A DNA stretch of 64,000 bases from IMG/VR virus record IMGVR_UViG_3300033405_000012, positions 14,142-78,141 of that record. One strand, given 5' to 3'. The position numbers and the translations under genes are program-made. Position 1 is the first letter of the stretch; the number at the start of each line of letters is the position of its first letter. Positions 14,716 to 63,203 of this stretch are shown one piece after another. The notes below the pieces were generated by a model. It was not told the DNA's origin, searched no databases, and was given only the letters and a program-made list of their open reading frames with translations. The stretch is from a virus. Taxonomy: Duplodnaviria > Heunggongvirae > Uroviricota > Caudoviricetes.

Positions 14716-15654
14716 CTACTTTGCCACGCCGGTGAAGAGCCCCTCGACCCAGGTGCGCACGGCGCTGAAATCGAAGCCGTGCTGGCACGGTTGCAACAGG
14801 TCGGGCTCGCCGCCGCTGCCGGCGACCGAGGCGGCGTCCTCCACGGGGATCGCTTCGATCTCTTTGAGCGTGGGCATTTCCACACTGGGGTCGATGGCCC
14901 ACTCGATCTTGCTGGCCTTCGCCCAGGCATGGATGCGCCGCACCGGGACGATGAAGTTGAAGCCTTGCAGTTTCATCACGCCCTGCGTGAGCATCCCGAT
15001 GTAGACGCCATCGGCCTTGAGATACATGCCGCCGCCGGAACTGCCGGGAAACGCCACCGCCGTCACCTGGTCAAAGACCTTGACGTTGGCACCCTTCATC
15101 GGAAGCGTGCGGCCGGTCTGGCTCAGCACGCCGGTCGTGTAGCTGTTGGCTCCGAACTGCCCGAGCAAGCTGCCGCAATGCGCCAGTTCGATCCCGATGG
15201 CCGGGATGTAGTCGGCTTCCAGATGGAACCTCGTGGAGACCGTCAGCGGGTAGGCGTTCTTGCAGCGGACCATCAAGAGGGCCAAATCCTCGCCGTAATC
15301 GGCATCCGACACCTTGACAACCTTGGCGTCGAACTTCACTTCGCCCACCCGCCGCCCGCCTTGCTGCCGTTCCTGGACGATCTCGGCGTCCTTGTACTCG
15401 ATCAACGTCTTCTTGGCACCGCTGGCTGTCACGACCGTGCGCGTCGTGCGGAGATTGTCAACGACGTGGGCCGCCGTCCACACGAAGGTCAGGGTGTCGT
15501 CCCCGACCTTCCGGGTCACGAGGTTGCCGGAGCCCTGCGCTTCGCCGGACTTGATTGTCACGCTGATCTGCTGCAAATCGTCGGGAACGCCCGCCAGGGC
15601 CGTGCCGCCAGCCAATGCGGCCACGAGAACCAACACCATCGCCAGGAACTTCAT
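14716..15654 (-). CDS. secreted trypsin-like (S1 family) serine protease
   Basis: Signal peptide MKFLAMVLVLVAALAGGTALA. Catalytic context TAAHV (His), DLALL (Asp), GSSGGG (Ser). Confidence 0.75.
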   Translation of the reverse strand: MKFLAMVLVLVAALAGGTALAGVPDDLQQISVTIKSGEAQGSGNLVTRKVGDDTLTFVWTAAHVVDNLRTTRTVVTASGAKKTLIEYKDAEIVQERQQGGRRVGEVKFDAKVVKVSDADYGEDLALLMVRCKNAYPLTVSTRFHLEADYIPAIGIELAHCGSLLGQFGANSYTTGVLSQTGRTLPMKGANVKVFDQVTAVAFPGSSGGGMYLKADGVYIGMLTQGVMKLQGFNFIVPVRRIHAWAKASKIEWAIDPSVEMPTLKEIEAIPVEDAASVAGSGGEPDLLQPCQHGFDFSAVRTWVEGLFTGVAK

Positions 15655-15702
15655 TGCTGCAACTCCGAAGGGGTGAAAGAAGAGAAATCGCACAACGGGC
15701 AC

Positions 15703-24763: not shown

Positions 24764-24924
24764 TCCGTGTTTACGCGCACACCCGTCACGTCACCCGATC
24801 CATCCTCCGCGGGCGGCTCGTCGCGGAGGTGGAAGTGGACCAGGAGCCCGAAGACCCCCAAGACTTCGCCGATCGGTACGGCGGCGACACCATCGAGATT
24901 TCACCTGAAGAGGCACAACCATGA
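24760..24924 (+). CDS. small coupled ORF (54 aa, hand-called)
   Basis: Its ATG overlaps the primase stop (aATGttga) and its TGA overlaps the next ATG. Acidic C-terminus. Below ORF-track cut-off; coordinates approximate. Confidence 0.3.
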   Translation: MIRVYAHTRHVTRSILRGRLVAEVEVDQEPEDPQDFADRYGGDTIEISPEEAQP

Positions 24925-25376
24925 GCAGGTACGGCATGACGGACAGTGGCAAGCGACAATCCTTCGGCAAGGGCATGGCGATCCGCGACACTGCGGACGA
25001 CAAGCCGCGGCCCGACTTGATCTCCCCCTTCGCCGAAGAGCGGCAGGGGCACTGGCTCCGCATGGGGGCCGCCAAGTACGCCGAACGCAACTGGGAGCGC
25101 GGGATGCCGTTTTCGCGCTGCGTGGCCTCGCTCAAGCGGCACGTCATGTGTTACCAGCAGGGCAAACGAGACGAGGACCACCTGGCCGCCATCATGTTCA
25201 ACGCGATGGCCCTGATCCACTACGAGGAGATGATCGAGCGCGGAGTGCTGCCGGCCAGCTTGAACGACATGCCGGTCTATTGCAAGGTCGAGGTCAGGAA
25301 GCAGACCCGGAGGACCCGCAGGAGCCGGCAATCACGGCAGCAGAAGGCAGGGCGTCCGAAGTCCCGCCGCAAGTGA
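24921..25376 (+). CDS. dATP/dGTP diphosphohydrolase N-terminal-domain-like protein (DUF5664-like)
   Basis: MTDSGKRQSF...KPRPDLISP...GAAKYAERNWERGMPFSR...LKRH...DEDHLAAIMFNAMAL matches my recollection of this phage domain's motif pattern. Basic C-terminal tail. Confidence 0.55.
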   Translation: MSRYGMTDSGKRQSFGKGMAIRDTADDKPRPDLISPFAEERQGHWLRMGAAKYAERNWERGMPFSRCVASLKRHVMCYQQGKRDEDHLAAIMFNAMALIHYEEMIERGVLPASLNDMPVYCKVEVRKQTRRTRRSRQSRQQKAGRPKSRRK

Positions 25377-44887: not shown

Positions 44888-45025
44888 AGAGGTGCCACGC
44901 CGCAACTCACGTCGCAGTTCCGTGGCAATGGACCCGGCCGTCTGGCAACGGGTTAGAGAACCGAGGTGCCACGCCGCAACTCACGTCGCAGTTCCGTGGC
45001 GATGGACCTGGCCGTCTGGCGGCCG
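44888..45025. repeat. tandem duplication (~75-bp period, two copies) at the tape-measure gene 3' end
   Basis: GAGGTGCCACGCCGCAACTCACGTCGCAGTTCCGTGGC[A/G]ATGGACC[C/T]GGCCGTCTGGC occurs twice. Confidence 0.6.
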
Positions 45026-48000
45026 GTGCCGCCGCCTTGGACCGTCACGTTGATGTCGCCAATGTTGGTGGTGTGGCCGCCTTGGCTGTGATACGAGGGC
45101 TTCACACCGGCGTTCATCGCGGTAAGCTGGGAAGCGAACCGGCGCGTCGTCGCCGCGCTCATTACCATTTCCCCCGGCGAGAGCATCGCCGGGATCACGT
45201 CCGTGCCGCGCGGGCGTCCACCGCCCGCCAAGAAGGCCATCCCGCCGTGGGCGGCCGTCATCGGGCCTTCCTCGGCCTGCGGCGGCTGGACAGTGGCCGC
45301 CGCCGCAGCCAACTCCGACATGGCATCCGCAGCCGACTCGATGGCCGATTGGAACGTGGCCATCGCGCTGTTGGCCTGGTTGATGGCCCCGGTGGTCTCG
45401 GAAAACTGATTGGTAATGTCCTGGACCTGCTTGCCGGAATCGGGAAACGCCTGCTTCAGGCGGTCGATGCCCTCGGTGGCCCCCTTCATCTGCTGATCCA
45501 GGTTGGGATATTTCGACTGGACGCCTCGAATCCGTTCCGCGTAGTCGAACATCTCCTTGAGGGTCTTGAGGTTCGCTTCCGTGCGGTCGAAGTTCAAGTC
45601 GAGGGACCAGGGCAGGTTCTTCTTCAACTCCTGGGTCTTCGCCACCAGGTCGTCGAGCGCCTTGGGCTCGATCTTCAGAGGATGCTTCTGCATCTCCAGG
45701 ATCGCTTCATTGATCTCGCGGAAGCTCGTGACCGCCGCCTGCAAGTCCGCCCTGCCCGTGGTGCCGAACACGCCCGTGAGCATATTCAAGCCGACCTTCG
45801 TGGCCTGCCACGCGCCGACGGAGCCCTCCTGCTGGACGGCCATGTTGGCGGTGATCTGCCGCTGCCGGCTTTCGATCTGCGCCAAGGCGTCGCGCTGCTG
45901 GTCGTAGGCTTCCTGGACCGCCCGGGCCGCTTGTGCCTGCTGCCGCGGATAGTTCTCGGCGGCCTTGAACTGCTCCTCGATGGTCTTGCCGATCAGCTTG
46001 GCGTGGTCGCCACCCACGAAGACATCCAAGTTGATCCGGCCCAGGCCCGTGGTGATCCGTTCATTCAGCTTGGCCAGAGACTCGGGGGCGACAAGCAGGT
46101 CGCGGACCTCGGCCTTCGTGACGGCTCCCTCCATCGTCTCACGCATCTTGCGTTTCATGGCGTCGAAGTTCAGCCAGTCGGACATCTCCCACTTCTTGCT
46201 GGCGAACATCAGACCTTGGAACTCCTGGATGGCCGCCTTCGTCTTCGCAATGGCCTGCTCGCGGTCCGGTCCGGCAAGAGGCTGATTCTTCTTGTCGAAC
46301 AGGTCCATGTCCTTGGAGATTTCCTTGGCCAGCTCACGCATCCGCGTGACAGTCCGCTCCTCGTCGGCCGCGGCGTCCGCCGCCGCCTTGGCCTGCTTTT
46401 GCTTGGAGGCCCGCAAGCCTTCGTTGGCGGCAAGCTCGCTTTCCAGGACACGCTCGATCGCCGCCTCGGCATCCTGTTGCCCGAGGGTGTCATGCCGGCG
46501 CTGGGCAATCTGCATCGACTCCTGCGCGTAGGCTTGGGCCCGCTTGTAGATGCTCTGGGCCACGTCGATGTCCTGCGGCGTCTTGGCCTTGGACATCATC
46601 TCCTCGGCCTGGCTCGCCAGCGTGAAAGCCTGGCCGGCGAAATCCTTCTGCTGTTCCCAGGTGCTCTTCCACTGGCTCTCGTACCAGCGGAAGCGGGTGT
46701 CCGCCAGGGTGCCGGCAATCTCCGTGCCCCGCTTCATCGAATCCGAAATGGCGCGGTCGGCTTCATTGGCCAGGTTGCGGAGGACGTGGACCTCCTTCTC
46801 GGCTTCGTCCACGATCTTCAACATGGTGGCGTGCGAGTCGTCCGTCAGGCGCTTGTTGTCCACCTGGGTCTCGTCCACCATCTTGAAGTAGTCTCTGCGG
46901 CGCTCGGTCAGGGCTTGCTCGGCCCGCTGCACGACGGCCTGGTTGGCACGGTCCTCCTCCTCGATGCGCCGCTGGTTGACCTGCTGAATCGCGCTCAGCC
47001 GGTCGGATTCCGCCTTGCGGAACTCCTCTTCGGCCTGCCGGATGCCCTGAATGATCCGCGTGTTGGCGAAGTCGAAGGCACCGTATGCCAACATTGCCAC
47101 CATGAGACCGTTGATCGCCAAGCCCAGTGGACCAAGCCCCAAAGTGGCCAAGCGAGCCGACATGGCCATCGAACCCAGGGCGACTGCAAAGCCGCCGAAC
47201 GCCGTCACGCCAAGCCCCAGAACGGGGATCAAGGCTTTCACGGCCGCGCCGACCGCATCCGCGCCTCCGACGACGCCCAGAAACTTGTCCGTGGCCTCGA
47301 CAATCGCCGCGCCCAGGTCCGTGGTGAGGAACGTCTTGAACTTGTTCAACTCCGCGAGCGTTTTCTGGGCGTCGCTCTCGATGAACAGCTTGTACTTCTC
47401 ATTGAAGGTGGCAACGCTCATTTCGCGGAGGTGCTGAACGGCGTCCGCCGTCCGCTTTCCGCTGTCGTCCGTCTCGCGCAAGGCCCCGCTGATCGCCCGC
47501 ACGTTGGGGATCAGGCGGGCGAAAGCCGCCATGTTCTCGTCGGTGCTCTGTCGCAGCTTGACCAAGGCCCCTTCGAGCCCCAGGGCCGCGATCATCTGCG
47601 GGCCGGACTCGTAGCCCAGATCGTGCAATTCCTTCTTCAAGTCCTGCGAAGGTTTTATGAGGGCCATCATGGCGGAACGCAGCGCCGTGGCGGCTTCGGC
47701 CGGCTTGACGCCGGAGACGGTCAGCGTGACCATCATGGCGTTCAGCTCGTCGAGGCTTACGCCCAGCTCACTCGACACGGCCGTCACGCGGCCCAGCACC
47801 GAGGCCAACTCCTCGCCCCGCACCCGGCCAATCTGGATTGTGGCAAAGAACTTCGCGGCCACCTGCTCGGCTTGGCTGGACTGCATGTGGTAGGCGTTGA
47901 GAGTGCCCGCAATCAGGTTGACCGCCTGCCCGGCATCCATGACGGCCACTTTCGACAGCTTGAAGGCCGCCGTCAGCACGTCCGTCTGTTGCGCGGCGGA

Positions 48001-48657
48001 CGCGAATTGGTTGGAAATGGCCTGATACTGTGCCTCGGCCACCTGCGCCAGCGGGATGTTGAACTCCCGGGACAGATTGGCCACACTATGCGAAATCATG
48101 TCCAGGCTGTTGCTGACGCCGGGGGAGATCGACTGGATTTCAGCGATCCGCGTCATAAATTGCAGATTGCTGTCGAACGCCTCGTGCATCATGTCGCGCA
48201 GGGCGCTCATGGCCCGCACGATGGCCTGCGTCATCACGACCCGGCTCAGCGTTTCCCAGGACACGACGAACTTGGCCGCCGCCCGGTCGGCCTCTTCGAT
48301 CGAGGAGGCATCGACTTCGGGCTTGATCTTCTTGCCCTTGGCGGCCCCGCCGGGCGTCTGCTCGCCGGCCCCGGGGCCGGCCGCGACTTGGCCGGCAGCC
48401 CCGGACGCCTGTTGCTGCTGTTGGGCGGAGAAGGCCGCTTGGAGCTTCGACATGGCGGCGGCAGCCGAAGCCGCGCCGGAGGCAATGTCCTTGAGGACCT
48501 GGACCGTCTCGCGGCCGTGCTCGTTCCACACGGACATGGACTCGGCCACGCGGCTCAACTGCGCGTCGAAGCCGCTCAAGGCTTGGTCCATCTTGGCCAG
48601 CGCCTCAAGGCCGGCGGAGGCGTCGAAGCCTAGCTGTTGAACGATTTCATCAGCCAT
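44953..48657 (-). CDS. tail tape measure protein
   Basis: ~1230 aa, alpha-helical, Ala/Gln/Glu-rich, with central hydrophobic Gly-rich segment LGLGVTAFGGFAVALGSMAMSARLATLGLGPLGLAINGLMVAML. Confidence 0.85.
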   Translation of the reverse strand: MADEIVQQLGFDASAGLEALAKMDQALSGFDAQLSRVAESMSVWNEHGRETVQVLKDIASGAASAAAAMSKLQAAFSAQQQQQASGAAGQVAAGPGAGEQTPGGAAKGKKIKPEVDASSIEEADRAAAKFVVSWETLSRVVMTQAIVRAMSALRDMMHEAFDSNLQFMTRIAEIQSISPGVSNSLDMISHSVANLSREFNIPLAQVAEAQYQAISNQFASAAQQTDVLTAAFKLSKVAVMDAGQAVNLIAGTLNAYHMQSSQAEQVAAKFFATIQIGRVRGEELASVLGRVTAVSSELGVSLDELNAMMVTLTVSGVKPAEAATALRSAMMALIKPSQDLKKELHDLGYESGPQMIAALGLEGALVKLRQSTDENMAAFARLIPNVRAISGALRETDDSGKRTADAVQHLREMSVATFNEKYKLFIESDAQKTLAELNKFKTFLTTDLGAAIVEATDKFLGVVGGADAVGAAVKALIPVLGLGVTAFGGFAVALGSMAMSARLATLGLGPLGLAINGLMVAMLAYGAFDFANTRIIQGIRQAEEEFRKAESDRLSAIQQVNQRRIEEEDRANQAVVQRAEQALTERRRDYFKMVDETQVDNKRLTDDSHATMLKIVDEAEKEVHVLRNLANEADRAISDSMKRGTEIAGTLADTRFRWYESQWKSTWEQQKDFAGQAFTLASQAEEMMSKAKTPQDIDVAQSIYKRAQAYAQESMQIAQRRHDTLGQQDAEAAIERVLESELAANEGLRASKQKQAKAAADAAADEERTVTRMRELAKEISKDMDLFDKKNQPLAGPDREQAIAKTKAAIQEFQGLMFASKKWEMSDWLNFDAMKRKMRETMEGAVTKAEVRDLLVAPESLAKLNERITTGLGRINLDVFVGGDHAKLIGKTIEEQFKAAENYPRQQAQAARAVQEAYDQQRDALAQIESRQRQITANMAVQQEGSVGAWQATKVGLNMLTGVFGTTGRADLQAAVTSFREINEAILEMQKHPLKIEPKALDDLVAKTQELKKNLPWSLDLNFDRTEANLKTLKEMFDYAERIRGVQSKYPNLDQQMKGATEGIDRLKQAFPDSGKQVQDITNQFSETTGAINQANSAMATFQSAIESAADAMSELAAAAATVQPPQAEEGPMTAAHGGMAFLAGGGRPRGTDVIPAMLSPGEMVMSAATTRRFASQLTAMNAGVKPSYHSQGGHTTNIGDINVTVQGGGTGRQTARSIATELRRELRRGTSVL

Positions 48658-49148
48658 TACCGCACCTTGATCTTCATGGACTTCAAGCACTCGAACGGAT
48701 TCGGCAGCCGCACCCCCTCAGCAAACTTGCGGAACGCCGCTTTCCCTTTTCCCTGGAAGTCGTAGGGGCCGGGCTTCTTGAGGTGGAAGCCCCATTGCGT
48801 GGCGTCGAAATACTCGTTGATAATCAGCCAGGGCAGCGTCGTCTGGTACTGGAAGACGTACCGCCCCCTCGCCTCGTCGGTCTCCAGGGAACCACTGCTT
48901 TCCGCGATGCCGCGGCCAATGCGGCTCGGGGCCACGGGGAAAATCGGGATGTTGTACTCGACGTTGCGGGCCAGCGCCAGAAAAGTCGCCCGCGATGCAC
49001 CGCTCCACACCGGCACCTCCGCGAGCACGGTCGCTTCCAACCACTGCACGATCGCCTGGGCCAGGGCCTCGCGCAGATGCTTGTCCAGCGTCCGGCGGTA
49101 CTTCTCCATGTCGATGCTCAGCGCGGTGAACGTGCCGGTGAACTTCAT
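48657..49148 (-). CDS. hypothetical protein between chaperone and TMP
   Basis: 163 aa. Overlaps the TMP start. Confidence 0.5.
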   Translation of the reverse strand: MKFTGTFTALSIDMEKYRRTLDKHLREALAQAIVQWLEATVLAEVPVWSGASRATFLALARNVEYNIPIFPVAPSRIGRGIAESSGSLETDEARGRYVFQYQTTLPWLIINEYFDATQWGFHLKKPGPYDFQGKGKAAFRKFAEGVRLPNPFECLKSMKIKVR

Positions 49149-52393: not shown

Positions 52394-52663
52394 TCAGCCG
52401 CCTTCGGCGCATTGACGGCGCAGAGGGCATTCGCGGCCTTCCAGGACCTTTTCCACGCGCTCCATCATGGCTGTGTTCTGCGCGATCACGTCCGTGCAGC
52501 GCTCGACCATCGGCAACAGCACTTGACGCTGTTCGTCTTCCAGCTTCGAGATGCGCTTGCTCATGCGCAGTTCGCGGAGCCAGTTCTGCCAGAGGAAGAA
52601 GCCCACCACCAGCACCAGCGGCCCGTACTGCTTGAGCAGCAGCAAAAGGTCAGAGAGTTCCAT
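52394..52663 (-). CDS. small membrane protein
   Basis: MELSDLLLLLKQYGPLVLVVGFFLW forms an N-terminal TM helix, followed by a charged coiled region. Confidence 0.4.
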   Translation of the reverse strand: MELSDLLLLLKQYGPLVLVVGFFLWQNWLRELRMSKRISKLEDEQRQVLLPMVERCTDVIAQNTAMMERVEKVLEGRECPLRRQCAEGG

Positions 52664-52755
52664 GCCAGGGCCTCCGCTCGGAATCAAAAGTGAGAAAGTC
52701 CGCCTGGCCCGGATCGTTCCGGGCCAGGCGGCTCGTTACCTTGCAACAGCAGGGC

Positions 52756-54189
52756 TTAGCCCTGGAGGACACAGCACAGGTTGGTGTCCAGGATGGCGAC
52801 CCCGGCCAGGATGTCGAGGTTGACCACCGTTCCGCCGCCCGTGATGCTGTACTGCATCGAGACCCTCATGGCGATGTCGTTGTAGACACCGACGTGAGCC
52901 AACACGCCCATCGCGTTGTTGGGGATGGCCAGCGGACGAGTGACCAGGGCGATGGCGTTGCGGTGGAACGCCATGTTCAGCGCGCCGGACGGGCCCGGAT
53001 AGCACGGGTCGGCGTTGTTCAGGGCCAGTTCCAGCGGACGATCCAGGTAGACGGCCTGGTAGCCGCCGACCGGGTTCGGGTTCCCGGAGGCATCCGAGGC
53101 GTAGGACTCGATCACCGTGTAGTTCCGGCGGTTGCTGCCGGTGCCGAAGGCGACCAACTGGCCGATGGACGGCGCGTTGGTGTAGCCCTGCAACTGCACG
53201 GAGGCGACCCAACCGGCGGCGTAGCTGCCGGCCACGGAGCACGCCTTGTAGCAGGCGTACTGGGCACCGGCCTGCGTGGCGTACTTGTTCGCCTCGTTGA
53301 GGGTCACGGTGCTGTGGTCGGTGGCGACCGCGGTGACGTAGGTCGGCTGGTCGTTGCCGGCCACGACGAGGAACTCGCCGACCGCCGGGTTGTGGGCCGT
53401 GTCCACGGTCACGGCCTGCGCGCCGCTGCCCGCAGCGGCCAGGGCGTTGGTGACGGTGCCGAACGACACGTCGCAACTGGTCTGCTGAACGGCATTGACG
53501 TTCTGGTCCATGTACGTGTCGAAACCGAGGATGCGACCGAGGGTGGCGCTTTCCAACGCCGTCCCGAAGTCGCCGCGCTGCTGGGCCGCGATGAACAGCT
53601 CGTTCTTCAACAGGGCCGTCTCGCTGATCGGGGCCAACACGAGGTTGCGCCCTTCCAGCGGGGCCTTGTTGACGTTGAGCTGCTCGCGGGCCTCCAGCAC
53701 GAAGTCCTTGCTGTTGTCCGCGGCCAGGTTGTTCAGCCGGCCGACCCGCTGGGTCGGGCTGCCCAGGAACCCGTGGACGCGGCCCAGGACGGCCCGGTCC
53801 ACCGAACGGGCAATCGTCATCATGCCCGGCCGGAGGTAGATGTCCACCAGGTCTTGGAACGACTTGCTGGCCTCGCCGTCCTTGATGGTGAAGCTGGTGT
53901 AGAACCACTGGTCCAAGGGCACCTGGACGTTCGTGGCCGAAGCGTCCTGGTTCTGGAGCGTGGTGCCGTCCTGCTTGCGGCGAATCTGGAACGTGCCGGG
54001 CCGGCGGGTGTTCACCACGTCGCCGAACTGCCGGATTTCGTTCTCGAAGTCGCGGTGGACCAGGTTGGCGATGACCATGTTCTCCTGGAGGATCGCCAAG
54101 CCTTCCGCGGCCCACAGCTCGGGAACGAAGGCGGTGTTGTCGTTGTCGTAGCAAGCGACCACCGCGGGGGAGAGGTACAACGGATTCAT
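52756..54189 (-). CDS. major capsid protein (T7 gp10-like HK97 fold)
   Basis: Pattern similar to T7 gp10 (NLVLAPISETALLKNELF...LGRILGFDTYMDQNV). Lies directly after the scaffold gene. 477 aa. Confidence 0.65.
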   Translation of the reverse strand: MNPLYLSPAVVACYDNDNTAFVPELWAAEGLAILQENMVIANLVHRDFENEIRQFGDVVNTRRPGTFQIRRKQDGTTLQNQDASATNVQVPLDQWFYTSFTIKDGEASKSFQDLVDIYLRPGMMTIARSVDRAVLGRVHGFLGSPTQRVGRLNNLAADNSKDFVLEAREQLNVNKAPLEGRNLVLAPISETALLKNELFIAAQQRGDFGTALESATLGRILGFDTYMDQNVNAVQQTSCDVSFGTVTNALAAAGSGAQAVTVDTAHNPAVGEFLVVAGNDQPTYVTAVATDHSTVTLNEANKYATQAGAQYACYKACSVAGSYAAGWVASVQLQGYTNAPSIGQLVAFGTGSNRRNYTVIESYASDASGNPNPVGGYQAVYLDRPLELALNNADPCYPGPSGALNMAFHRNAIALVTRPLAIPNNAMGVLAHVGVYNDIAMRVSMQYSITGGGTVVNLDILAGVAILDTNLCCVLQG

Positions 54190-54277
54190 CGTTGAAACTC
54201 CATGTTGGTGTCAATCAGAGAAGCGCAAGACACCGCGACGTGCGGCGTCCCGAACGACGAACCCCTGACGGAACGCG

Positions 54278-55180
54278 CTAGCGGCGCGACCCTTTCTGCG
54301 GACGGAGCCCGAGCAACTCAGGGTTCTTTGCCCGAAGCTCCATGTACTGCTGTTGGGTCAGCTTCCGCGGATCGACTTTGCCGCCGCCTCCCGACGCAAG
54401 GCCGCCGGTTGCCGCACTCGACCCGATGCCGCTGACGACGCCGGACTTGAAGAGGTTGCCGTAGGTCTGCGGCAACTCCTTCATCCGCTTCACAGCGCTC
54501 TCGGGCGTGTGCAGGGTCACGGTCGGCTCCCCGGTGTTCGGATCGGTGTCCGGGAAGTCCACCACGACCTTGAATTTCCCCGTGCCCTTGCCCGTCTTCT
54601 CGTCCGTGATCTCGGTCAAGCGGGTCATGGGGCGCAACACGGACATGACCGTGTTGGTGTTGAACGCATCGCCGCCGACGGCCGCATCCATCAAGGCCCG
54701 CTCGACCGTGCCCTCACGGTAGCGCTGTTCCCACACCTCGCGGGCCTTCTTCTCGTCCGTCAACTGCTTCGTGTACTGCTCTTCGAGCTGCTTCCGCTCG
54801 TGGGCCAACTGCTGTTCCTTCGTCCGCGTCTCCTTCCGCATGTCTTCCAACTGCTGGGCCAACTGCTCGCGCTCTTGGATGGTCAGGTTCTTCGACGCCG
54901 ACACCTCCTCAAGCATCTTCTCGACCCGCTGAAGCTGCGCCTGGTGCTTCCGCTTGTCCTCCGCGAGGTAGCGGTTCAGGTCGTCCTGGGTGAAGCGGGT
55001 CTCGCCCGCACCGGCACCCGCGCCTCCGCTTGCGCCGGCCGCGGCACCGGCCCCGGTCCCGGCACCTGCGCCGGCTGCCGCGCCCGCGCCTGCGCCCGCA
55101 CCGGCTCCCGCGCCGGCACCGTCGCCACCCTCGCCGTCGAAACAAGCCACCACCGCACGCGACAAATAGAGAGACTGCAT
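54278..55180 (-). CDS. scaffolding protein
   Basis: Start at MQSLYLSRAVVACFDGEGG, then a (GA)n linker, then a long charged coiled-coil (QQLEDMRKETRTKEQQLAHERKQLEEQY). Confidence 0.65.
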   Translation of the reverse strand: MQSLYLSRAVVACFDGEGGDGAGAGAGAGAGAGAAAGAGAGTGAGAAAGASGGAGAGAGETRFTQDDLNRYLAEDKRKHQAQLQRVEKMLEEVSASKNLTIQEREQLAQQLEDMRKETRTKEQQLAHERKQLEEQYTKQLTDEKKAREVWEQRYREGTVERALMDAAVGGDAFNTNTVMSVLRPMTRLTEITDEKTGKGTGKFKVVVDFPDTDPNTGEPTVTLHTPESAVKRMKELPQTYGNLFKSGVVSGIGSSAATGGLASGGGGKVDPRKLTQQQYMELRAKNPELLGLRPQKGSRR

Positions 55181-55304: not shown

Positions 55305-55874
55305 CTACGAAACTCGGGACAATCGCACGGCCTGGTCGTCGCGCAGAAACGGCTTCAAGAGCGACCAGGCCAAGGGATTCGGCACCAGGTTAATCAGGTG
55401 CTCGATCGGCACCATGCTCCGCTCGTAGTGCGTCCGCACCTCGGCGTAGCCTTGGGCCGTCACCGTCAAGTTCTCCAACTCCATTTGCGGGTCCACGCCA
55501 TCCAACAGACTGTAGGCCAATTCGTACTCGGCCATGCGGATGGCGTCCGGGATCGTCGTGTCCGAGCCGCGCGGGAACTCCAACGGCTGACTCGCTTCGG
55601 CGGCGCGTTCCCCCTGCCGATATTGCTGTTCGCTGCGCCAGTCAACCGCATCATCGGTCGGATCGCGCCACGGAGGGGGCGTTTGCTGGCGGTACACCCA
55701 GACCGCGTGCTTGTCCCCCTTGAACGCAAGGTTGTCGATCAGCCGGCGGGCCGACAACAGGGCCTTGTTCTGTTCCGTGGGGCACGCATCGTCCCAGGCG
55801 TCCGAATGCAGGCGGCCGGCGAAGTAGGCGTTGGCCTCGTCGAGGCTGCCGTAGATGTCCGCGTTGATCGCCAT
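55305..55874 (-). CDS. gp6-like head-tail connector domain protein
   Basis: YGSLDEANAYFAGRLHSDAWDDA...KALLSARRLIDNLAFKG matches the N-terminal signature of the gp6-like connector family. Confidence 0.5.
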   Translation of the reverse strand: MAINADIYGSLDEANAYFAGRLHSDAWDDACPTEQNKALLSARRLIDNLAFKGDKHAVWVYRQQTPPPWRDPTDDAVDWRSEQQYRQGERAAEASQPLEFPRGSDTTIPDAIRMAEYELAYSLLDGVDPQMELENLTVTAQGYAEVRTHYERSMVPIEHLINLVPNPLAWSLLKPFLRDDQAVRLSRVS

Positions 55875-55932
55875 TGCTACGCCTGCCCTAAAGCCCTCGA
55901 CCCTACCTCGTGACAGCCACACACCAGCGCCG

Positions 55933-56255: not shown

Positions 56256-58157
56256 CTACTCGCCCTCTTGCTGATTGTGCTTGCCCTTGCCACGGACAGG
56301 CGGCTTTGTCGTGTCTTTCAGCGTGGTATCGCGGCTGGCCGCCTTCTCTTCCTTGCCCGCGCTGGAATTCGCCGAAAGATCACGGACGCCGCGGGCCCCG
56401 GCATCACTGTTCATGTCCCCGGCGACCTCGTTCAGGGCCGTCGATTCGGAGCCGGCCCACTTCTCCGTGGCCGGATCGCGGCTTGTGGCCCCGGTGGTCT
56501 GCGAACCCAATTGGCCGCCCTTCTGCTGGGCTTGCAGAATCCGAATCGCCCTCGCGGCATGGTCGGCCCGGGCCTGGATGTGCTCGTCGTCGTTGAAGCC
56601 CAGGGCCATCGAGCCGGTCTTCTCGCCGCACAGGCCGGCCTCGACCGCCGCAATGATGGTCGTTGGGTCGCTGGTGGCGTAGGGGGCCTTGTCGATCTCG
56701 TCGAAGATAGCCTGAATGTCGCCGACGCTGATCTTGCCGCCCAACAGGGCCAACACGATGTTCTTGGCCAACTCGCGCTTGACCTTCTGCCCCGGCACGG
56801 CGTACATCAGCTTGACCAGGCTTTGGGCCTCCGCAATCCGGTCGGAATCCGTCTTGAGGCTGTAGCGGTCGGGATACTTGATGGTGGCGACGTTCCGTTT
56901 GGCCGCATCACGCTCTTCGTAGGCCGCCCAAAACTCGGCGACCTGCCGCTCGGCGGCCTCCAACACCAAGCCGATGTAGGACAGCCCCGCTTCGAGCCCC
57001 TGGTTGTCCATCGACTTCGATTCCGCCGTGGCCCGGTTCGCCGTGTCGGCCACCGCCAGATGAATCAGCTTGCGGATGTCGTCTTCCAGCTTGGCTTGCA
57101 GGTCCATCGAAGCCTTCAAGGGCTCGCTCGACGGATTGATGAACGCGGGCTGATTCGCCTTCAAGTCGTAGGTCCGGCCTTGCGTGACGCCGACCTTGAT
57201 GTCGCTGTCGGCGGCTGCCTGGCCGCCCGTCGTCGCCGTGCCGTCCTCGCCCACCGCGTTCTTCAAGTGGCTGCCGGTGGCGCGCTGGTCCCTCTGCTCG
57301 ACATAGAAGGGGAAGTTGGCCTTCAGGGCGTAGTTGATGTCGCTGGACCCCAGGTTCAGCAAGGCGATCTGGTGGTTCACCACGTCCTTAATCATGCTGT
57401 CGCCGATGTCCAACAGCACGAAGGGGATGCGGGTCAACTCCAACTCCACGGCCCCGGCCGGATTCCCCTCGCGGTCGATGGGATTGCCGGCGGTGTCCAG
57501 GAATTGCAGGTTGACCTTGCCCGTGTCACGGTCGATCCACAACATGCGGAACCGCTCGACGGTGGTGGTCGGCAGGTAGGTCCGCTGGTCGAAGTTGAGC
57601 ACCACGTCGCGGAGCAAGAGCGCCTGGAACGTGGACGGTTCATCCGGCTTGGCGCAGGTCCAGCTCAGGATGTCTTCGATGGGATAGAAGTACAGGTACG
57701 GCCGGTAGTTCTGCACGTCCGCCAAGGTGGCGTTGCCGGGGACCAGCGGGGAATCCACGTAGACGCCCACGCGGCCCATAATGAGCAGCTCGGTCAGCAC
57801 CTTGATGCCCAGGAAGCCGTTCATCGTGTTGCCGCGAAGATCGACGCCCAGGTCCAGGCCGTTGACGGCACGCTGGTAGGCCGCCGTGCCGCCGCGCCGG
57901 GTCGTGTCCTTGAGCCGCTGGAAAATGGCGTTGCGCACGTCGTCGATCGCCACGCGGGCATAGGTGGGGATCGGCGTCATGTTCAGGCGGCTCTGGAACT
58001 CCGGCTCGCTTTCCCGCCCGGAGAACTTCTGGAGGAACAGCTTGCGGAAGTATTCGCCGCCGTTGTAGCAGATGCGCCACTTCCGCCAGTCCAGCAGGCT
58101 GCTGAGGTAGCTCGGGTGTCTGACTTCGACGATGTTGGTGATGTACTGGACAACCAC
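56256..58157 (-). CDS. portal protein
   Basis: 633 aa, acidic C-terminus. Lies between the terminase-side genes and scaffold/capsid. Confidence 0.65.
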   Translation of the reverse strand: MVVQYITNIVEVRHPSYLSSLLDWRKWRICYNGGEYFRKLFLQKFSGRESEPEFQSRLNMTPIPTYARVAIDDVRNAIFQRLKDTTRRGGTAAYQRAVNGLDLGVDLRGNTMNGFLGIKVLTELLIMGRVGVYVDSPLVPGNATLADVQNYRPYLYFYPIEDILSWTCAKPDEPSTFQALLLRDVVLNFDQRTYLPTTTVERFRMLWIDRDTGKVNLQFLDTAGNPIDREGNPAGAVELELTRIPFVLLDIGDSMIKDVVNHQIALLNLGSSDINYALKANFPFYVEQRDQRATGSHLKNAVGEDGTATTGGQAAADSDIKVGVTQGRTYDLKANQPAFINPSSEPLKASMDLQAKLEDDIRKLIHLAVADTANRATAESKSMDNQGLEAGLSYIGLVLEAAERQVAEFWAAYEERDAAKRNVATIKYPDRYSLKTDSDRIAEAQSLVKLMYAVPGQKVKRELAKNIVLALLGGKISVGDIQAIFDEIDKAPYATSDPTTIIAAVEAGLCGEKTGSMALGFNDDEHIQARADHAARAIRILQAQQKGGQLGSQTTGATSRDPATEKWAGSESTALNEVAGDMNSDAGARGVRDLSANSSAGKEEKAASRDTTLKDTTKPPVRGKGKHNQQEGE

Positions 58158-58447: not shown

Positions 58448-60571
58448 CTAGCTCCCGATTGCGCTGGCCGTCCGTGCGCCGGTCGCCTTGTTGAAAGTGA
58501 CGCTCAGCGCCAACGTCGTTCCGTCCTGCGCGAGGAAATTGGCGGTGCAGGTTCCGTCGCCGTTGTCGGTGACTGTCAGTTTTCCTCCGGCCACGGCCAG
58601 CAATGCTCGCGTGAAACGCGACCAGGAAACACCGTCCAGGGTGAGGCCCGTCACGGCATCCGTCACGGCGTCCGCGACCTGCGACTGATTGAGCGGGTCG
58701 ATCACCAGGTCGCAGATGTACAGAGCGAGGCTGCTCGGCGACGGATACGAGGCGTAAATGGCCGACACCGTGCTGTCGTCGATCAAGACAAGCTCGCCAT
58801 ACTGATCTCCATTCGGCGGAGTGAGCCACTGCACGGCATACCAGGTCTGCTGCTCGTCCCAACTGACTGCCAGCAATGTACTCGTGGTCTGGCTCGGGCC
58901 CGCCAGCGGCAGCATCGCACGGGTCAGGAGAAGCGAGACGCCGCTGGGAGTGCGCACGACCGCGGGTTTCCCGCCATGCCCGACATAGAACGCACGCCGG
59001 GGGCCGACCCAGGTGGCCCCGAGATCGGGGCTGGATGCCCGCCAAATCGTCCCGCTGCTGTCACTGCGGATCAGCGCGACAATCTCGCCACCCGGCAGCA
59101 AGGTAAGCTCCGTCTCACTCATCTCCTGCCCCATCGCTGGGCCGTTTGCAACCGTCGCCCCAAGCGTCCAGGTGGTGTAGGGGGCGACAGCGTGTATTAC
59201 GCACACGCTATCGGTTGCGTCGGTCCCGGCCGCAGTCAGGCCGCCGTTGATTGCCAACAGCAGCGACCCATCCGGCAACTGGAGAGCACGGTTGTTCGCC
59301 GACACGGCGTTGGAGCCACTGGCGAGTGGGTAAAGCGCGATCTGACTGCCACTCTGAGGAACCCAAGTCGGAGCCGCGGGCGGCGTGGCAGTGTTCATCG
59401 CGTGGTAGATCGTCACCAGCGTGCCCAAGGAAAGCGTGTTCGTGCTCGCATTCCATGTTGCCACGCAGCCGAGGATGGCGGTGTGTGCATACGTGGGCAG
59501 GGCGTCGTATGCCTTCCAATGCAACCAAATCTGACCGGTCAGATTCCCGTTCGTGTCACGTAGCGGAGTGGCTTCCACGTCGGACGCCACGCCGAACGGG
59601 CTCGACGGCGTGTAGAAGCACACCGGGCCGCTCCATGTCCCATCAAGCCCGCGCCGCTGATAGTACAGGGAGCCGAAGCCCTCGTTGTTCATGGTCGTGT
59701 TCGACGAGTACAACACCAGGCGCGAACCATCGGGCAGAAGGCAGTACGTCGGCTCACTGTTCCAATTCGTTCCCAAGGCCGGCTGGCTGGGCACTTGACT
59801 CGGAGCGCTGATCGTCAGCGGCGAAGCGCCGTTGGGCAACCAGGCGGATTCAATGCAGATCGCGTCGAGCGGCTGGGTCTGAGTCACGCCGCCGACCGCG
59901 TAAGTGGCCACCGGGAAAACCATGTCGCCCGGCAAGTAACTCTGCGGATACGGCCTCGTGGCCGAGGCATACGGCGCAGTCGCCGTGATGCGGTAGATGC
60001 CGGTCGCCAAATGCTGCACGGAGAAGTTGCCGTTGCTCAGCGCCAGCGCGTCAACCGCCCCATCGTGCCAGACCGCGATGGTCACACCGCCGTCTACGTC
60101 GCACAAGGCGTTCGTAGCCGGATCATAGACCCAAAGCGTGTAGTCGTACTGGTCGCCAATGCGCAAGCTCTGGATCGCCCGGCTGCCTGCGCCTCCCGCC
60201 GCACCCGTGGGAATCGGATTCCCATTGCGGTTGTCCGCCCCTTGGAGGGTGAAATGCGTGCCATCCCAATGCCCGAAGTACGAGGCGACCAACACATCGG
60301 ACACGGCAGCCGTTTCGCCAGCCTGGGCGTAGAGGTCCACCCAGTACCAGCCGGCAACCATCACGCCGCCAATCGCCGGCAGCGAGCCGATGTAGAAGTA
60401 TCCGCCAGCCGGCGTCTCTGCCAGGGGCAGGCCGTAATTCGCCCAGTTTGCGACCGTCAGTGTCTCGAAGGCGAGCGTGCTGGCATTCCAGCGCTGGCCG
60501 CTGACCTGGCGCATCACGGCGTACAGGGTCGCCCCGGTTGCCCGATAAGGATGGTTGATCTCGTTCGCCAT
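58448..60571 (-). CDS. BNR/Asp-box repeat (sialidase-like beta-propeller) protein
   Basis: SSPDLGATW and SWDEQQTW Asp-box (SxDxGxTW) motifs. 707 aa, beta-rich. Confidence 0.6.
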   Translation of the reverse strand: MANEINHPYRATGATLYAVMRQVSGQRWNASTLAFETLTVANWANYGLPLAETPAGGYFYIGSLPAIGGVMVAGWYWVDLYAQAGETAAVSDVLVASYFGHWDGTHFTLQGADNRNGNPIPTGAAGGAGSRAIQSLRIGDQYDYTLWVYDPATNALCDVDGGVTIAVWHDGAVDALALSNGNFSVQHLATGIYRITATAPYASATRPYPQSYLPGDMVFPVATYAVGGVTQTQPLDAICIESAWLPNGASPLTISAPSQVPSQPALGTNWNSEPTYCLLPDGSRLVLYSSNTTMNNEGFGSLYYQRRGLDGTWSGPVCFYTPSSPFGVASDVEATPLRDTNGNLTGQIWLHWKAYDALPTYAHTAILGCVATWNASTNTLSLGTLVTIYHAMNTATPPAAPTWVPQSGSQIALYPLASGSNAVSANNRALQLPDGSLLLAINGGLTAAGTDATDSVCVIHAVAPYTTWTLGATVANGPAMGQEMSETELTLLPGGEIVALIRSDSSGTIWRASSPDLGATWVGPRRAFYVGHGGKPAVVRTPSGVSLLLTRAMLPLAGPSQTTSTLLAVSWDEQQTWYAVQWLTPPNGDQYGELVLIDDSTVSAIYASYPSPSSLALYICDLVIDPLNQSQVADAVTDAVTGLTLDGVSWSRFTRALLAVAGGKLTVTDNGDGTCTANFLAQDGTTLALSVTFNKATGARTASAIGS

Positions 60572-60572
60572 A

Positions 60573-63203
60573 TCAGTAAGTCCCCGTGCGGACGCCGAAG
60601 GTTGGATGGACGAAGTACACGCCTACGGTGGCATCGACGTTGACGCCGACGCGCACGTCACCGGCGGCTGGAATGTAAGCCGATCCGGTGTGAGCCGTGC
60701 CGCCCGCGCCGTATTGCGTACCGTGCCGCACGTCGGTCGTGGCGGCCTCTGTCACGGTCCCAGTCGTTGGGCTGGCTGGATCGCCGTAAGAAGCAGTCGT
60801 CAAGGCTTCACTGGCCGGGCAGTCGGCACGGGTGCCCAGCACGCCGTCACCCCGATCAACGCCGGAAAGCACTTCATTCGCCGGGGGCAGCGATGCGATC
60901 ACTGTCTGACCGAAGAAGTTCGGATCGTAGAAAAGCCTCTTCGGGCTGGCGTTGCTGTAGACAATCAGGGCGGCCGCGCCGTCTGAATTCCACTTGGGGA
61001 ACGCAATGTTCGTGCCGCCGGCCGTTGTCCCTATCAAAGTGCCCGGTAATACCGGGTCTACCAGCAAGCCCGTGGCCAACGTGGAAGCGTTGATCGGCGT
61101 CTTACTCCGATAGAAGCGGAGCGAGTTGCGGAACCCGGAGGGCTCGGCCGTCGGATTCGGCCCGAGAATCCAAAGATAGCCGCCCACCACCTGGAGGTTC
61201 AAAGGCGTGTTCGAGGACCACACCGGGCTCCGTATCTGCACGCCGCTGGAATACGACCCGTCTAGCTGAGTGAAGGCACTCCAGGTCGCACCGCCATCCG
61301 TTGAATACGAATAGGGGGCAAACAAGTAGTTGCCTGCCTCCGTCACTACCAGCAACGTGCCATCGTCGGCCTCGGCCAGCGTCAACTCGTAAAGGGTACT
61401 CACGCCGGAGCCGTAAGACGGCGTAACCAACGTCAGGCTCCAATCGCTGGCGAGCACCGGCTGGCTCTTGTCGGCCGCATTTCCATTGCTGCTGATCGAC
61501 TTGTAGATGCACATTTGGAACGATGATCCCGTACCATACGTGCCGACGGCGATCCAGCATTGCTGGTGCGCACTCCAGATCACATCCGTGATGACTACGC
61601 TGCCCACGACCTGGCCGGATATGGTGGCCTCTGCCGACCACGTTACGCCACCATCCGTAGACAAGGTTTGTACGAGATCGCTGACGACCGTGGGTGTGGT
61701 CTGCCACACTCGCTCAGCCAACACGAGCAGCGTGTTGCCGCGCCCGATCAGTCGGCCGGCCTGCAACGCCCACTGTACCGGAATGAGCACACCGCTCGCT
61801 GGCACGACCGTCGCCGTCAGTTGCTCCACAAGTCCCCACGCCGACGCATTCCCGCCGCCATACGTCCCCGCCGCGGGATCAATGATCGCGGACCAGCCCG
61901 CGTAGCCGCCAATGGTGGTCAACAGGGTCGTCAGCGTCGTCGAAGTTCCAAGTGTGATCTGTGCTACGCGATGGCCAGTGTCAGTCCCGTCCACGAAGAG
62001 ATTCAGGTAGCGCGTCGCCGCCACCGCGCTGTTGGTGATCGTGTAATAGCCGGTATGTCCCGCGCTGTTGTAGCTAAGCTGAATACCCGGCTGCGTCTTC
62101 AACGGGAACACCAGCGCCGGCGGACTCCAGGCACTACATGCCGGATTCAGCGCGCGATACAGATTCACCCGGGCGTCGCCCAGTTGGGACGTGAGCCCCT
62201 CGCAACACGCGACCACAACCGTGCCCGAGGCTGTCCGCGCCGCACCCATCATGCGATTCGCACCGCTGACCCAATACGGAATGGGTGTGTTCGCTGCCGA
62301 ATGATAGAGCGAGGTAATCGGGCTAAGAACCTTGTGGCGCGATAAGATCGCCGGATCAAACGGGGGCTCCGTTTGTCCCTGACCATTCGGCTGATAGGTC
62401 GTGTCCTGGCCCCACAACTGGTCCACGACATGGACGTAGCAGGCAGCTTCCGCCGAACTCGCCACCAGGAAGGCCGTAATCGGCACCGTGCCGCCGGGCA
62501 ACGAGCACTGGCCGACACCCATGCAGAACCAATCCGGGCTGTCCACGTCGCAAAGCCATTGCGACTGGACCCATGCCTCGCACCACCACAAGTCCGCAAC
62601 CGGGCTGCCGCTATCGTTCAGTACCGGACCGCGAATGACCAATGCCACCCCCACTTCCTCCTTGAAAGTGGCACCACTCACGGCTAGAAGCGGATTGACC
62701 AACTCACCGGGAAGTGCCGTGCCACTCGTGTCCGCAGTCGTGACGGCCATCGCCATCGCAACCGCGGTCCCCGAGGAATTGGTTTGGAGCGAGGTGGCAG
62801 CACCGCCAATGCACACTGAGAACAGCCCGGCTCCCGTGCTGCCGGGGTTCGTGCCCAGCGCGGCGTAACCCGTCGAGTTTGCCAAAACGACGTTCACGCC
62901 AACCGGCATTTCCTGCCAGTAGAGCGTCCGAAGACTCACGTAAGGGCCGTTCGTCGTATCAATGGCCTGGTAGGTCGGTGTCCCCGCCGAGGCCCCAGGA
63001 TACGCGCAGCCCCCAATCGAAAGCGTGCCGCCGGCCGCCGTCTGGCCGATCTTGAGGGAGTAGTTGTCCAAGGCGCGCGACGGGTTGGAAGAGCCCAAGG
63101 CGTCCATCTGCAAGGTGCCAATCAAGCCTGCCTTGGTGGCAGCCGCCCCGGCGGCTCCACTCAGGCTGCCGGCTAGGTATGTGTCTTGATACCAGACGGA
63201 CAT
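60573..63203 (-). CDS. BNR/Asp-box repeat large protein
   Basis: STDGGVTWS and STDGGATWS Asp-boxes. 876 aa. Confidence 0.6.
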   Translation of the reverse strand: MSVWYQDTYLAGSLSGAAGAAATKAGLIGTLQMDALGSSNPSRALDNYSLKIGQTAAGGTLSIGGCAYPGASAGTPTYQAIDTTNGPYVSLRTLYWQEMPVGVNVVLANSTGYAALGTNPGSTGAGLFSVCIGGAATSLQTNSSGTAVAMAMAVTTADTSGTALPGELVNPLLAVSGATFKEEVGVALVIRGPVLNDSGSPVADLWWCEAWVQSQWLCDVDSPDWFCMGVGQCSLPGGTVPITAFLVASSAEAACYVHVVDQLWGQDTTYQPNGQGQTEPPFDPAILSRHKVLSPITSLYHSAANTPIPYWVSGANRMMGAARTASGTVVVACCEGLTSQLGDARVNLYRALNPACSAWSPPALVFPLKTQPGIQLSYNSAGHTGYYTITNSAVAATRYLNLFVDGTDTGHRVAQITLGTSTTLTTLLTTIGGYAGWSAIIDPAAGTYGGGNASAWGLVEQLTATVVPASGVLIPVQWALQAGRLIGRGNTLLVLAERVWQTTPTVVSDLVQTLSTDGGVTWSAEATISGQVVGSVVITDVIWSAHQQCWIAVGTYGTGSSFQMCIYKSISSNGNAADKSQPVLASDWSLTLVTPSYGSGVSTLYELTLAEADDGTLLVVTEAGNYLFAPYSYSTDGGATWSAFTQLDGSYSSGVQIRSPVWSSNTPLNLQVVGGYLWILGPNPTAEPSGFRNSLRFYRSKTPINASTLATGLLVDPVLPGTLIGTTAGGTNIAFPKWNSDGAAALIVYSNASPKRLFYDPNFFGQTVIASLPPANEVLSGVDRGDGVLGTRADCPASEALTTASYGDPASPTTGTVTEAATTDVRHGTQYGAGGTAHTGSAYIPAAGDVRVGVNVDATVGVYFVHPTFGVRTGTY

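Follow-up and report, generated by a model that had tools for sequence, protein, structure and literature searches.

In the 64,000-nucleotide stretch of tailed-phage DNA analysed here (the window; positions 14,142 to 78,141 of the IMG/VR record IMGVR_UViG_3300033405_000012), the major capsid protein and the scaffolding protein open with a shared 14-residue N-terminal peptide, and the two peptides are most likely a phage-specific handshake for head assembly. The reading that we favour, with a probability of roughly 0.5, is that they are co-evolving recognition tags that couple the cognate capsid and scaffold in procapsid assembly. Across the phage family, in which hundreds of relatives have such a pair, the tags are matched within each phage, diverge fast, are present or absent jointly, are under selection at the peptide level and are predicted to be disordered. 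Together with the restriction of the tags to these two proteins and their position-by-position matching within a phage, the rapid divergence, peptide-level selection and joint loss point to mutual recognition.

Both genes lie on the minus strand of the window. The major capsid protein (477 residues, 52756-54189; Pfam P22_CoatProtein PF11651, E 5e-23; phrog_283, E 2e-50) begins with MNPLYLSPAVVACY (residues 1-14, 54148..54189, minus strand) followed by DNDN (continuing DNDNTAFVPELW), and the scaffolding protein (300 residues, 54278-55180; phrog_206, E 9e-10; 219 homologues) begins with MQSLYLSRAVVACF (residues 1-14, 55139..55180, minus strand) followed by DGEGGDGAG. That the scaffold truly begins at the ATG at 55180 is supported by relatives (e.g., L020 and L051; L numbers designate the loci of related phages), which have a stop codon immediately upstream of the tag. 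In the capsid, an acidic, Asn-containing spacer, DNDNTA (residues 15-20, 54130..54147, minus strand), separates the tag from the N-arm (FVPELW...); N16 is invariant, and D17 and N18 are at least 90% conserved. The initial annotation had given the N-termini as MNPLYLSPAVVACYDNDN for the capsid and MQSLYLSRAVVACFDGEGG for the scaffold and had described a common motif of 13 residues. The presence of this motif on both proteins was borne out, whereas its extent had to be corrected: the shared block reads M-x2-LYLS-x-AVVAC-[FY]-D, with an aromatic residue at position 14 in both proteins, and gives way to a looser common pattern, [ADE]-[NG]-[DE]-[NG].

Over the first 15 residues the two proteins are identical at 11 of 15 amino acids and at 30 of 45 bases, and the codons differ at 6 of the 11 identical residues. 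A six-frame search of the whole window for the motif, allowing up to four substitutions, returned just these two sites. When a profile built from 90 capsid N-termini of other phages was run against the window, the scaffold was recovered with E=1.3e-6 and the next open reading frame (ORF) with E=2.2; the information content of the tag is about 25 bits. The scaffold has cysteine in the tag stretch only, and Cys is enriched in the tags of the window's subfamily. Two readings of this residue were tried and rejected. A lipoprotein or signal-peptide function of 'VVAC' is contradicted by the shortness of the peptide, the lack of a basic n-region, the Ser, Ala or Val that relatives have in place of Cys, and the cytoplasmic location of the proteins. 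Thiol chemistry (metal binding, a disulfide or Cys-nucleophile self-cleavage) was dismissed as a general mechanism, the wider family having mostly Val, Ala, Ser or Thr at this position.

The capsid tag is conserved in 120 homologues (60-97% identity), the full-length members of which all start with M-N-x-L-Y-L-S-x-A-x-V-A-C-[FY]-[AD]-N-D-N. The residue at position 14 is aromatic in 96 of 114 close capsids. The initial annotation had allowed for the motif being absent in close relatives; we looked for such an absence, and the motif was kept in all 114 full-length close capsids in which anchoring was possible and in essentially all full-length scaffolds, where it is followed by an acidic Gly/Ala-rich stretch. 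Altogether, the conservation in capsids spans more than 1300 capsid clusters. Across head-module loci (approximately 1.1 Mb) and replication-module loci (approximately 0.9 Mb) the only carriers of the tag were capsids, scaffolds and one scaffold paralogue; no other protein with the tag was detected in these loci or in the window. Five distant phages with a P22-type coat protein, namely phiCP39-O (Clostridium), Keanu (Streptomyces), VP06 (Vibrio), VanLee (Gordonia) and MaAM05 (Microcystis), have no shared peptide, and their capsids begin directly at the N-arm. The tag is an extra element peculiar to this large environmental phage family.

The tags of the two proteins resemble each other more within a phage than between phages. 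In 52 unique close phages the identity between a phage's own capsid and scaffold tags averaged 7.21 of 14 residues, compared with 5.19 of 14 across phages, and none of 20000 permutations was as extreme. The choice between Phe and Tyr at the aromatic position agreed within a phage in 83% of cases, where 49% was expected. Concerted changes can be recognised on inspection in both proteins of the same phage: Cys to Ser (L035, L037, L040), Leu to Trp (L005, L012, L066), and 'RARLVCFD' (L001, L033, L044), 'RP[FW]..C[FY]E' (L006, L013, L097) or 'INTFYD' (L010). At the same time, divergence is more rapid in the tags than in the capsid body. Between phages with 64% identity in the body, the identity is 45% for the capsid tags and 37% for the scaffold tags, while the cross-protein identity of the two tags within a phage is 51%.

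The initial annotation had proposed that the peptide is conserved by selection and not by recent DNA duplication, and the codons strongly support this. At identical residues in the close phages the two genes share the codon in 154 of 336 cases, where codon usage would predict 132.6, and no capsid-scaffold pair of tags in this set exceeds 30 of 42 identical bases; in the more distant phages described below the codon is the same in 47 of 108 cases. Since the codons mostly differ, recent gene conversion is not the explanation of the match, which is kept at the level of the peptide.

The matching extends well beyond the close relatives. A profile search with the capsid against 1.84 billion cluster representatives (cut-off E<=1e-3) yielded 4026 relatives, many of which are prophages in genomes assigned to Planctomycetota. 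Most relatives at about 40-55% identity still carry an N-terminal extension; its sequence is wholly unlike that of the window, and it typically ends in [VACST]-[YF] before [AD]-N-[DS]. Over the family the tags are 8-14 residues long, hydrophobic and aromatic. We compared the distant ones in 80 unique phages by the best 8-residue window between the capsid and scaffold tags. Own pairs had a mean of 4.62 identities, compared with 3.21 for cross pairs; at least 5 of 8 identities were reached by 51% of own pairs and by 4% of cross pairs; and the own scaffold was the best partner in 37 of the 80 phages. The capsid and scaffold tags are, respectively, YQIKWVG and YQIKWVG in L205, KYWKPVY and KYWKPVY in L307, PEITVY and PEITVY in L416, LYSNPVLACY and LYSNPVLACY in L327, KTLYTIQQPLF and KTLYTLQRPLF in L290, and FIVADARPIAHD and FVIADARPIAHD in L280, and both tags end in VH in L188 and L211. 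In L280 and in L327, 7 of 10 codons differ between the two genes.

Four capsids (L248, L255, L317 and L332) have no tag. They start with M-AN(D/L/N), at the position just past the aromatic residue of their tagged relatives (MANDLDAFVPELW, MANLLDAYIPEIW, MANDNTALIAQVW and MANNNDALIPEIW, respectively). Their scaffolds start with MADENVD..., MADDINN..., MTDVKPI... and MADEIQAPETFTKEQ, and none of the four carries a hydrophobic peptide. A hidden upstream exon is excluded in all four loci because the distance between the scaffold stop codon and the capsid ATG is about 30 nucleotides or less. The absence of the tag from both proteins at once in whole lineages makes it a separable module. Together with the family-wide conservation, the within-phage co-variation and the use of different codons, this joint absence lends strong support to the suggestion of the initial annotation that the motif is a common recognition element of the two main procapsid components.

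P0070, which at first appeared to be a fifth tagless capsid, proved to be a mis-called gene in which the tag sits in a short exon 1 split off by a group I intron with a homing-endonuclease-like ORF. Such introns (Rfam RF00028, 50-56 bits) interrupt the capsid gene in L058 (8065-8725), L075 (8065-8713), L072 (7330-7966) and L110 (1-930). The intron site, one and the same in these loci, lies just past exon 1, whose coding content is limited to the tag and NDNDAF. Some of these introns carry an HNH or zinc-finger-like ORF, and gene callers then report a false tagless capsid.

The predicted structures place both tags on flexible ends. AlphaFold run with the family alignment modelled the capsid (mean predicted local distance difference test score, pLDDT, 80) as a P22/Sf6-like HK97 fold with an insertion domain, and Foldseek matched the model to the coat proteins of Sf6, CUS-3 and P22 (E 1e-13 to 1e-12). 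The body was modelled confidently; residues 1-40, including the tag, had a pLDDT of 42-49. In the scaffold the tag had a pLDDT of about 53, and residues 13-59 fell below 50. This region includes a low-complexity acidic Gly/Ala linker (residues 15-59, DGEGGDGAGAG...; 55004..55138, minus strand), which varies in length and composition among homologues. Since both tags and the scaffold linker are of low confidence, the tags appear to be flexible terminal peptides suited to act in trans. The remainder of the scaffold was predicted to form long helices (a coiled coil) starting from the conserved FTQDDLNRYLAEDKRKH (residues 65-169, 54674..54988, minus strand; AlphaFold secondary structure and A3 consensus), a compact alpha/beta domain (residues 175-243, 54452..54658, minus strand; pLDDT about 90), a second disordered linker, and a basic C-terminal helix-turn-helix (residues 276-290, KLTQQQYMELRAKNPELLGL, 54311..54355, minus strand; helices at 276-285 and 287-290). 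To have such a compact domain between the coiled coil and the helix-turn-helix is unusual for phage scaffolds. The scaffold C-terminus is almost invariant across the family (G-K-x-D-V-R-K-L-T-x-Q-Q-Y-x-E-I-R-x-K-N-P-E-L-L-G-L), whereas the tags vary widely. By analogy with P22, the helix-turn-helix is presumably the binding site for the conserved capsid N-arm.

On the basis of these features the tags are probably coupled assembly-recognition elements, and a docking or recognition peptide, one of the candidate mechanisms listed in the initial annotation, fits the results best. Each tag would be hydrophobic, strand-prone and flexible, closing with an aromatic residue ahead of an acidic hinge rich in Asn and Gly. 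During procapsid assembly the scaffold tag, tethered by its disordered linker of about 45 residues, could pair with the capsid tag or occupy the same phage-specific docking site. We have moderate confidence that the mechanism is direct pairing of the tags, probably as in-register strands. This contact would be a lineage-specific addition to the conserved contact between the helix-turn-helix and the N-arm; its role would lie in assembly and its benefit in the specificity of the cognate capsid-scaffold pair. In a possible later step the tag might be clipped after Tyr14 or Phe14.

The helix-turn-helix could also be imagined as the target of the scaffold's own N-terminus, which would act as a decoy by imitating the capsid N-arm and thereby bring about auto-inhibition, head-to-tail oligomers or competitive release. 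The likeness between the two proteins does continue past the tag into the acidic stretch (DNDN in the capsid, DGEG in the scaffold). However, a nearly invariant C-terminus does not co-vary with variable tags, and a mutual-information scan gave no signal between the tag and the scaffold C-terminus, so that the decoy seems highly improbable; for the same lack of variation the C-terminus was set aside as a reader of the tags.

The alternative that deserves the most attention is that the tags are propeptides cut after the aromatic residue (...C[YF]↓[DE], the arrow marking the cut) by a protease that works in trans and is encoded outside the head module, most likely an enzyme of the host with a normal substrate that they mimic; the tag would then be of importance only up to its removal. 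A precedent is given by the staphylococcal phage 80alpha, in which a motif shared by capsid and scaffold is cut after Phe by the host protease Prp and no prohead protease is present (PMC5744158, PMC9405229). The geometry here is the same: in both proteins the aromatic residue occupies position 14, preceded by a small residue and followed by [ADE]-[NG]-[DE]. The tagless homologues begin at the would-be P1' residue (M-ANDN..., M-ADE...). The window also lacks a candidate enzyme of its own, consistent with the initial annotation, which had identified no maturation protease: scans of about 55 ORFs against Pfam or PHROGs found no cytoplasmic protease, and no peptidase family was found in the head module or elsewhere in the 64 kb apart from one exported S1 protease. 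This DegQ/trypsin-like serine protease (14716-15702, minus strand; motifs TAAHVV, DLALL and GSSGGG) lies in the replication module and is kept in 68 viral contigs at 64-82% identity. It and all of the approximately 17 homologues with a readable N-terminus open with a Sec-type signal peptide (MKYVLL...AVA↓SVPDD), and as an exported enzyme it cannot reach procapsids; this predicted export ruled it out as a prohead protease. The 106-residue ORF adjoining the portal gene (minus strand), considered as a Prp-sized protease, was rejected because it has no cysteine and no conserved catalytic residues and is poorly conserved.

Several observations make the propeptide reading rather unlikely. A fixed protease specificity fails to explain why residues 2-12 are matched within a phage yet almost wholly different between phages. 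The tag is unlike the L27/Prp consensus, Planctomycetes are not among the phyla with reported Prp or long L27 (PMC9405229), and the terminal residue of the tag is sometimes His, Gly, Ser or Met. The fold of the capsid likewise counts against it. P22-like coat systems normally mature without proteolysis.

A common third partner, such as a chaperone, the portal or another head protein, could instead bind both tags, co-evolve with them and coordinate folding or delivery. The authors of the 80alpha study proposed a common chaperone to account for the scaffold tag of that phage being essential even when uncleaved (PMC5744158); moreover, co-variation of the tags at the same positions fits one shared site as well as it fits direct pairing. 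However, no gene of the head module tracks the presence of the tag. The small hydrophobic gene downstream of the capsid gene was rejected as the partner since about 70 of 233 tagged loci lack it, and the 106-residue gene, poorly conserved as noted, has no catalytic-looking residues. The portal is present in 12 copies against hundreds of capsid subunits, and co-evolution of three parties at the observed speed is less parsimonious than that of two. We therefore regard a third partner as unlikely, more so than the propeptide.

A tagged scaffold was also found on a mobile element, which in four viral contigs (L103, 1351-11517, and also L101, L102 and L104) interrupts the portal gene at a single conserved position (LLNLGS...) and was first seen in L037 (1685-4937), L038 and L097. 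Its cargo comprises a D5-like primase/helicase (DUF5906) or an AAA_25 protein, a 218-residue ORF, a large serine recombinase and its own tagged scaffold homologue. Copies of this scaffold are 96-100% identical beside resident phages with different capsids. In L038 the tag of the element shares 12 of 14 positions with the neighbouring capsid tag, more than the 10 of 14 shared by the tag of the resident scaffold, which supports the recognition reading. The architecture recalls satellites of the P4 or phage-inducible chromosomal island (PICI) type, which redirect the capsid assembly of a helper; the left end of the element falls outside the sequence seen. More tentatively, the tags may be a lineage-specific self-recognition code, read by in-register strand pairing, which would restrict the scaffold of a phage to building with its own capsid protein, and diversified by co-resident related prophages and by satellite-like elements that imitate the capsid tag of their helper.

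A number of observations weigh against the recognition of one tag by the other. The identity of the two tags within a phage is only about 50%, and 15 of the 80 distant pairs reach only 2-3 of 8 identities. The tag of the mobile element in L101 does not match the tags of the resident phage. Mutual-information scans of the tag columns against the scaffold and capsid bodies yielded nothing above phylogenetic noise and located no docking groove (the highest-scoring pair, tag position 9 and capsid residue Y363, had an MIp of 0.239, the 99.9th percentile being 0.218). The AlphaFold models are of monomers, and a contact in trans is beyond what they can show. The tagless homologues begin exactly after the aromatic residue, and a removable propeptide would give the same sharp boundary. 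Finally, the DNA of the two tags is nearly identical in some pairs (17 of 18 nucleotides in L010, and 19 of 21 in L205 and in L307). In L010, a low-G+C relative with 41% capsid identity, the 'INTFYD' segments lie at 1327-1344 and 2115-2132. Such pairs are what would be expected if the likeness were a functionless leftover of recent duplication or gene conversion of the 5' end, or else due to chance. Nevertheless, this explanation is refuted by the profile score of the window scaffold, the conservation over the capsid clusters, the different codons and the joint absence of the tags in the four tagless lineages; short gene conversion between the two 5' ends probably contributes occasionally.

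The window belongs to a siphovirus-type phage or prophage (63% G+C). The head-module genes are all on the minus strand and include, besides the capsid and scaffold genes, those for the terminase large subunit (63216 to the window end), the portal (56256-58157), an Ad1-like adaptor (55305-55922) and the tape measure protein (44953-48690), as well as small ORFs and a tail protein. Two BNR/Asp-box repeat proteins of 707 and 876 residues (58448-63203, minus strand) are encoded between the terminase large subunit and the portal, an unusual position for non-head genes. Directly downstream of the capsid gene lies the gene for a 97-residue protein (52394-52687, minus strand) with a hydrophobic N-terminal helix (Q-x-GP...W), a charged coiled coil and one conserved Cys; it was detected in most of about 98 close loci. 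A gap of comparable size, often with a hydrophobic ORF, follows the capsid gene in about two thirds of the tagged loci and is uncorrelated with the tag. The genes in the remainder of the window serve replication (PolA, a D5-like primase/helicase, ligase, methylases and ParB). An ORF with a dATP/dGTP diphosphohydrolase N-terminal domain (24921-25376, plus strand; PF18909, E 6e-19) adjoins an RNase T-like exonuclease, which may hint at nucleotide-pool manipulation or DNA modification. Related prophages occur in metagenome-assembled genomes assigned to Pirellulales, Thermoguttaceae and Planctomycetaceae, and the phage of the window is a planctomycete phage.

We found no description of the within-phage matching of a fast-evolving tag, together with its joint loss, in the literature searched. 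Recognition between scaffold and coat is understood mainly from P22, phi29 and 80alpha, and what the shared tag does in 80alpha is not yet settled. The large uncultured family described here offers a natural experiment, with dozens of divergent, internally matched versions of the tag and lineages that have it on neither protein, and the function of the tag is directly testable by deletion and swapping. The tags also suggest a simple, portable specificity handle for the engineering of capsid-scaffold pairs and virus-like particles, and satellites equipped with a scaffold of their own can be looked for by this sequence signature.

Short terminal peptides shared between proteins are known from other systems. 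The capsid targeting sequence of T4 marks cargo, not the shell protein, and is removed by the phage protease gp21, with the cut at L/I-x-E. It is a short N-terminal peptide common to several proteins, which it directs into the assembling prohead core (PMC3012670). Here, unlike in T4, the tag is on the shell protein and on no cargo, and a phage prohead protease and an LxE junction are both lacking. The encapsulin-like targeting signal put forward in the initial annotation does not fit because the shell protein bears the tag, whereas encapsulins have their cargo-loading peptide on cargo alone, where it attaches to the inner face of an untagged shell protein. In fungal HET-s type and bacterial BASS systems, adjacent genes for an NLR and an effector share a short motif that is read as templated beta-sheet pairing (bioRxiv 10.1101/2020.01.06.895854). 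The likeness lies in a matched short terminal motif in neighbouring genes that is more alike within than between pairs, and it is an analogy of signature only: there is no NLR/effector context and no G/N/Q-rich motif of about 20-25 residues here, and an amyloid fold is not implied.

The closest parallel in form is 80alpha, whose capsid (gp47) and scaffold (gp46) share an N-terminal motif of 13-14 residues, the scaffold tag being needed for assembly (PMC5744158, PMC9405229). In both cases the same motif opens the two main procapsid proteins and ends in an aromatic residue, and there is no prohead protease. However, the tag described here, M-x2-LYLS-x-A-x3-C-[FY]↓[DEA]-[NG]-[DE], is not the consensus of the L27 N-extension and Prp site, MLxx(D/N)LQ(F/L)F↓A(S/H)KK (PMC9405229), and the scaffolds are not homologous (hhalign probability 1.2%). 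The 80alpha scaffold belongs to PF14265 and its capsid to PF05065, whereas the capsid of the window belongs to PF11651. In addition, the tag of the window is lineage-specific and matched within the phage, not fixed by a host consensus, and its cleavage is only a possibility. Thus, the arrangement resembles that of 80alpha in form but departs from it in the defining traits of Prp/L27 motif and homology.

P22 and Sf6, in which the scaffold is recyclable, provide the structural counterpart. To our knowledge, P22 itself has no N-terminal peptide shared between the coat and scaffolding proteins. As in P22/Sf6, the phage of the window has a separate scaffold gene directly upstream of the gene for a coat protein of the same fold and no protease gene, and its scaffold is likewise predicted to combine a flexible N-terminus, long helices and a basic C-terminal helix-turn-helix.

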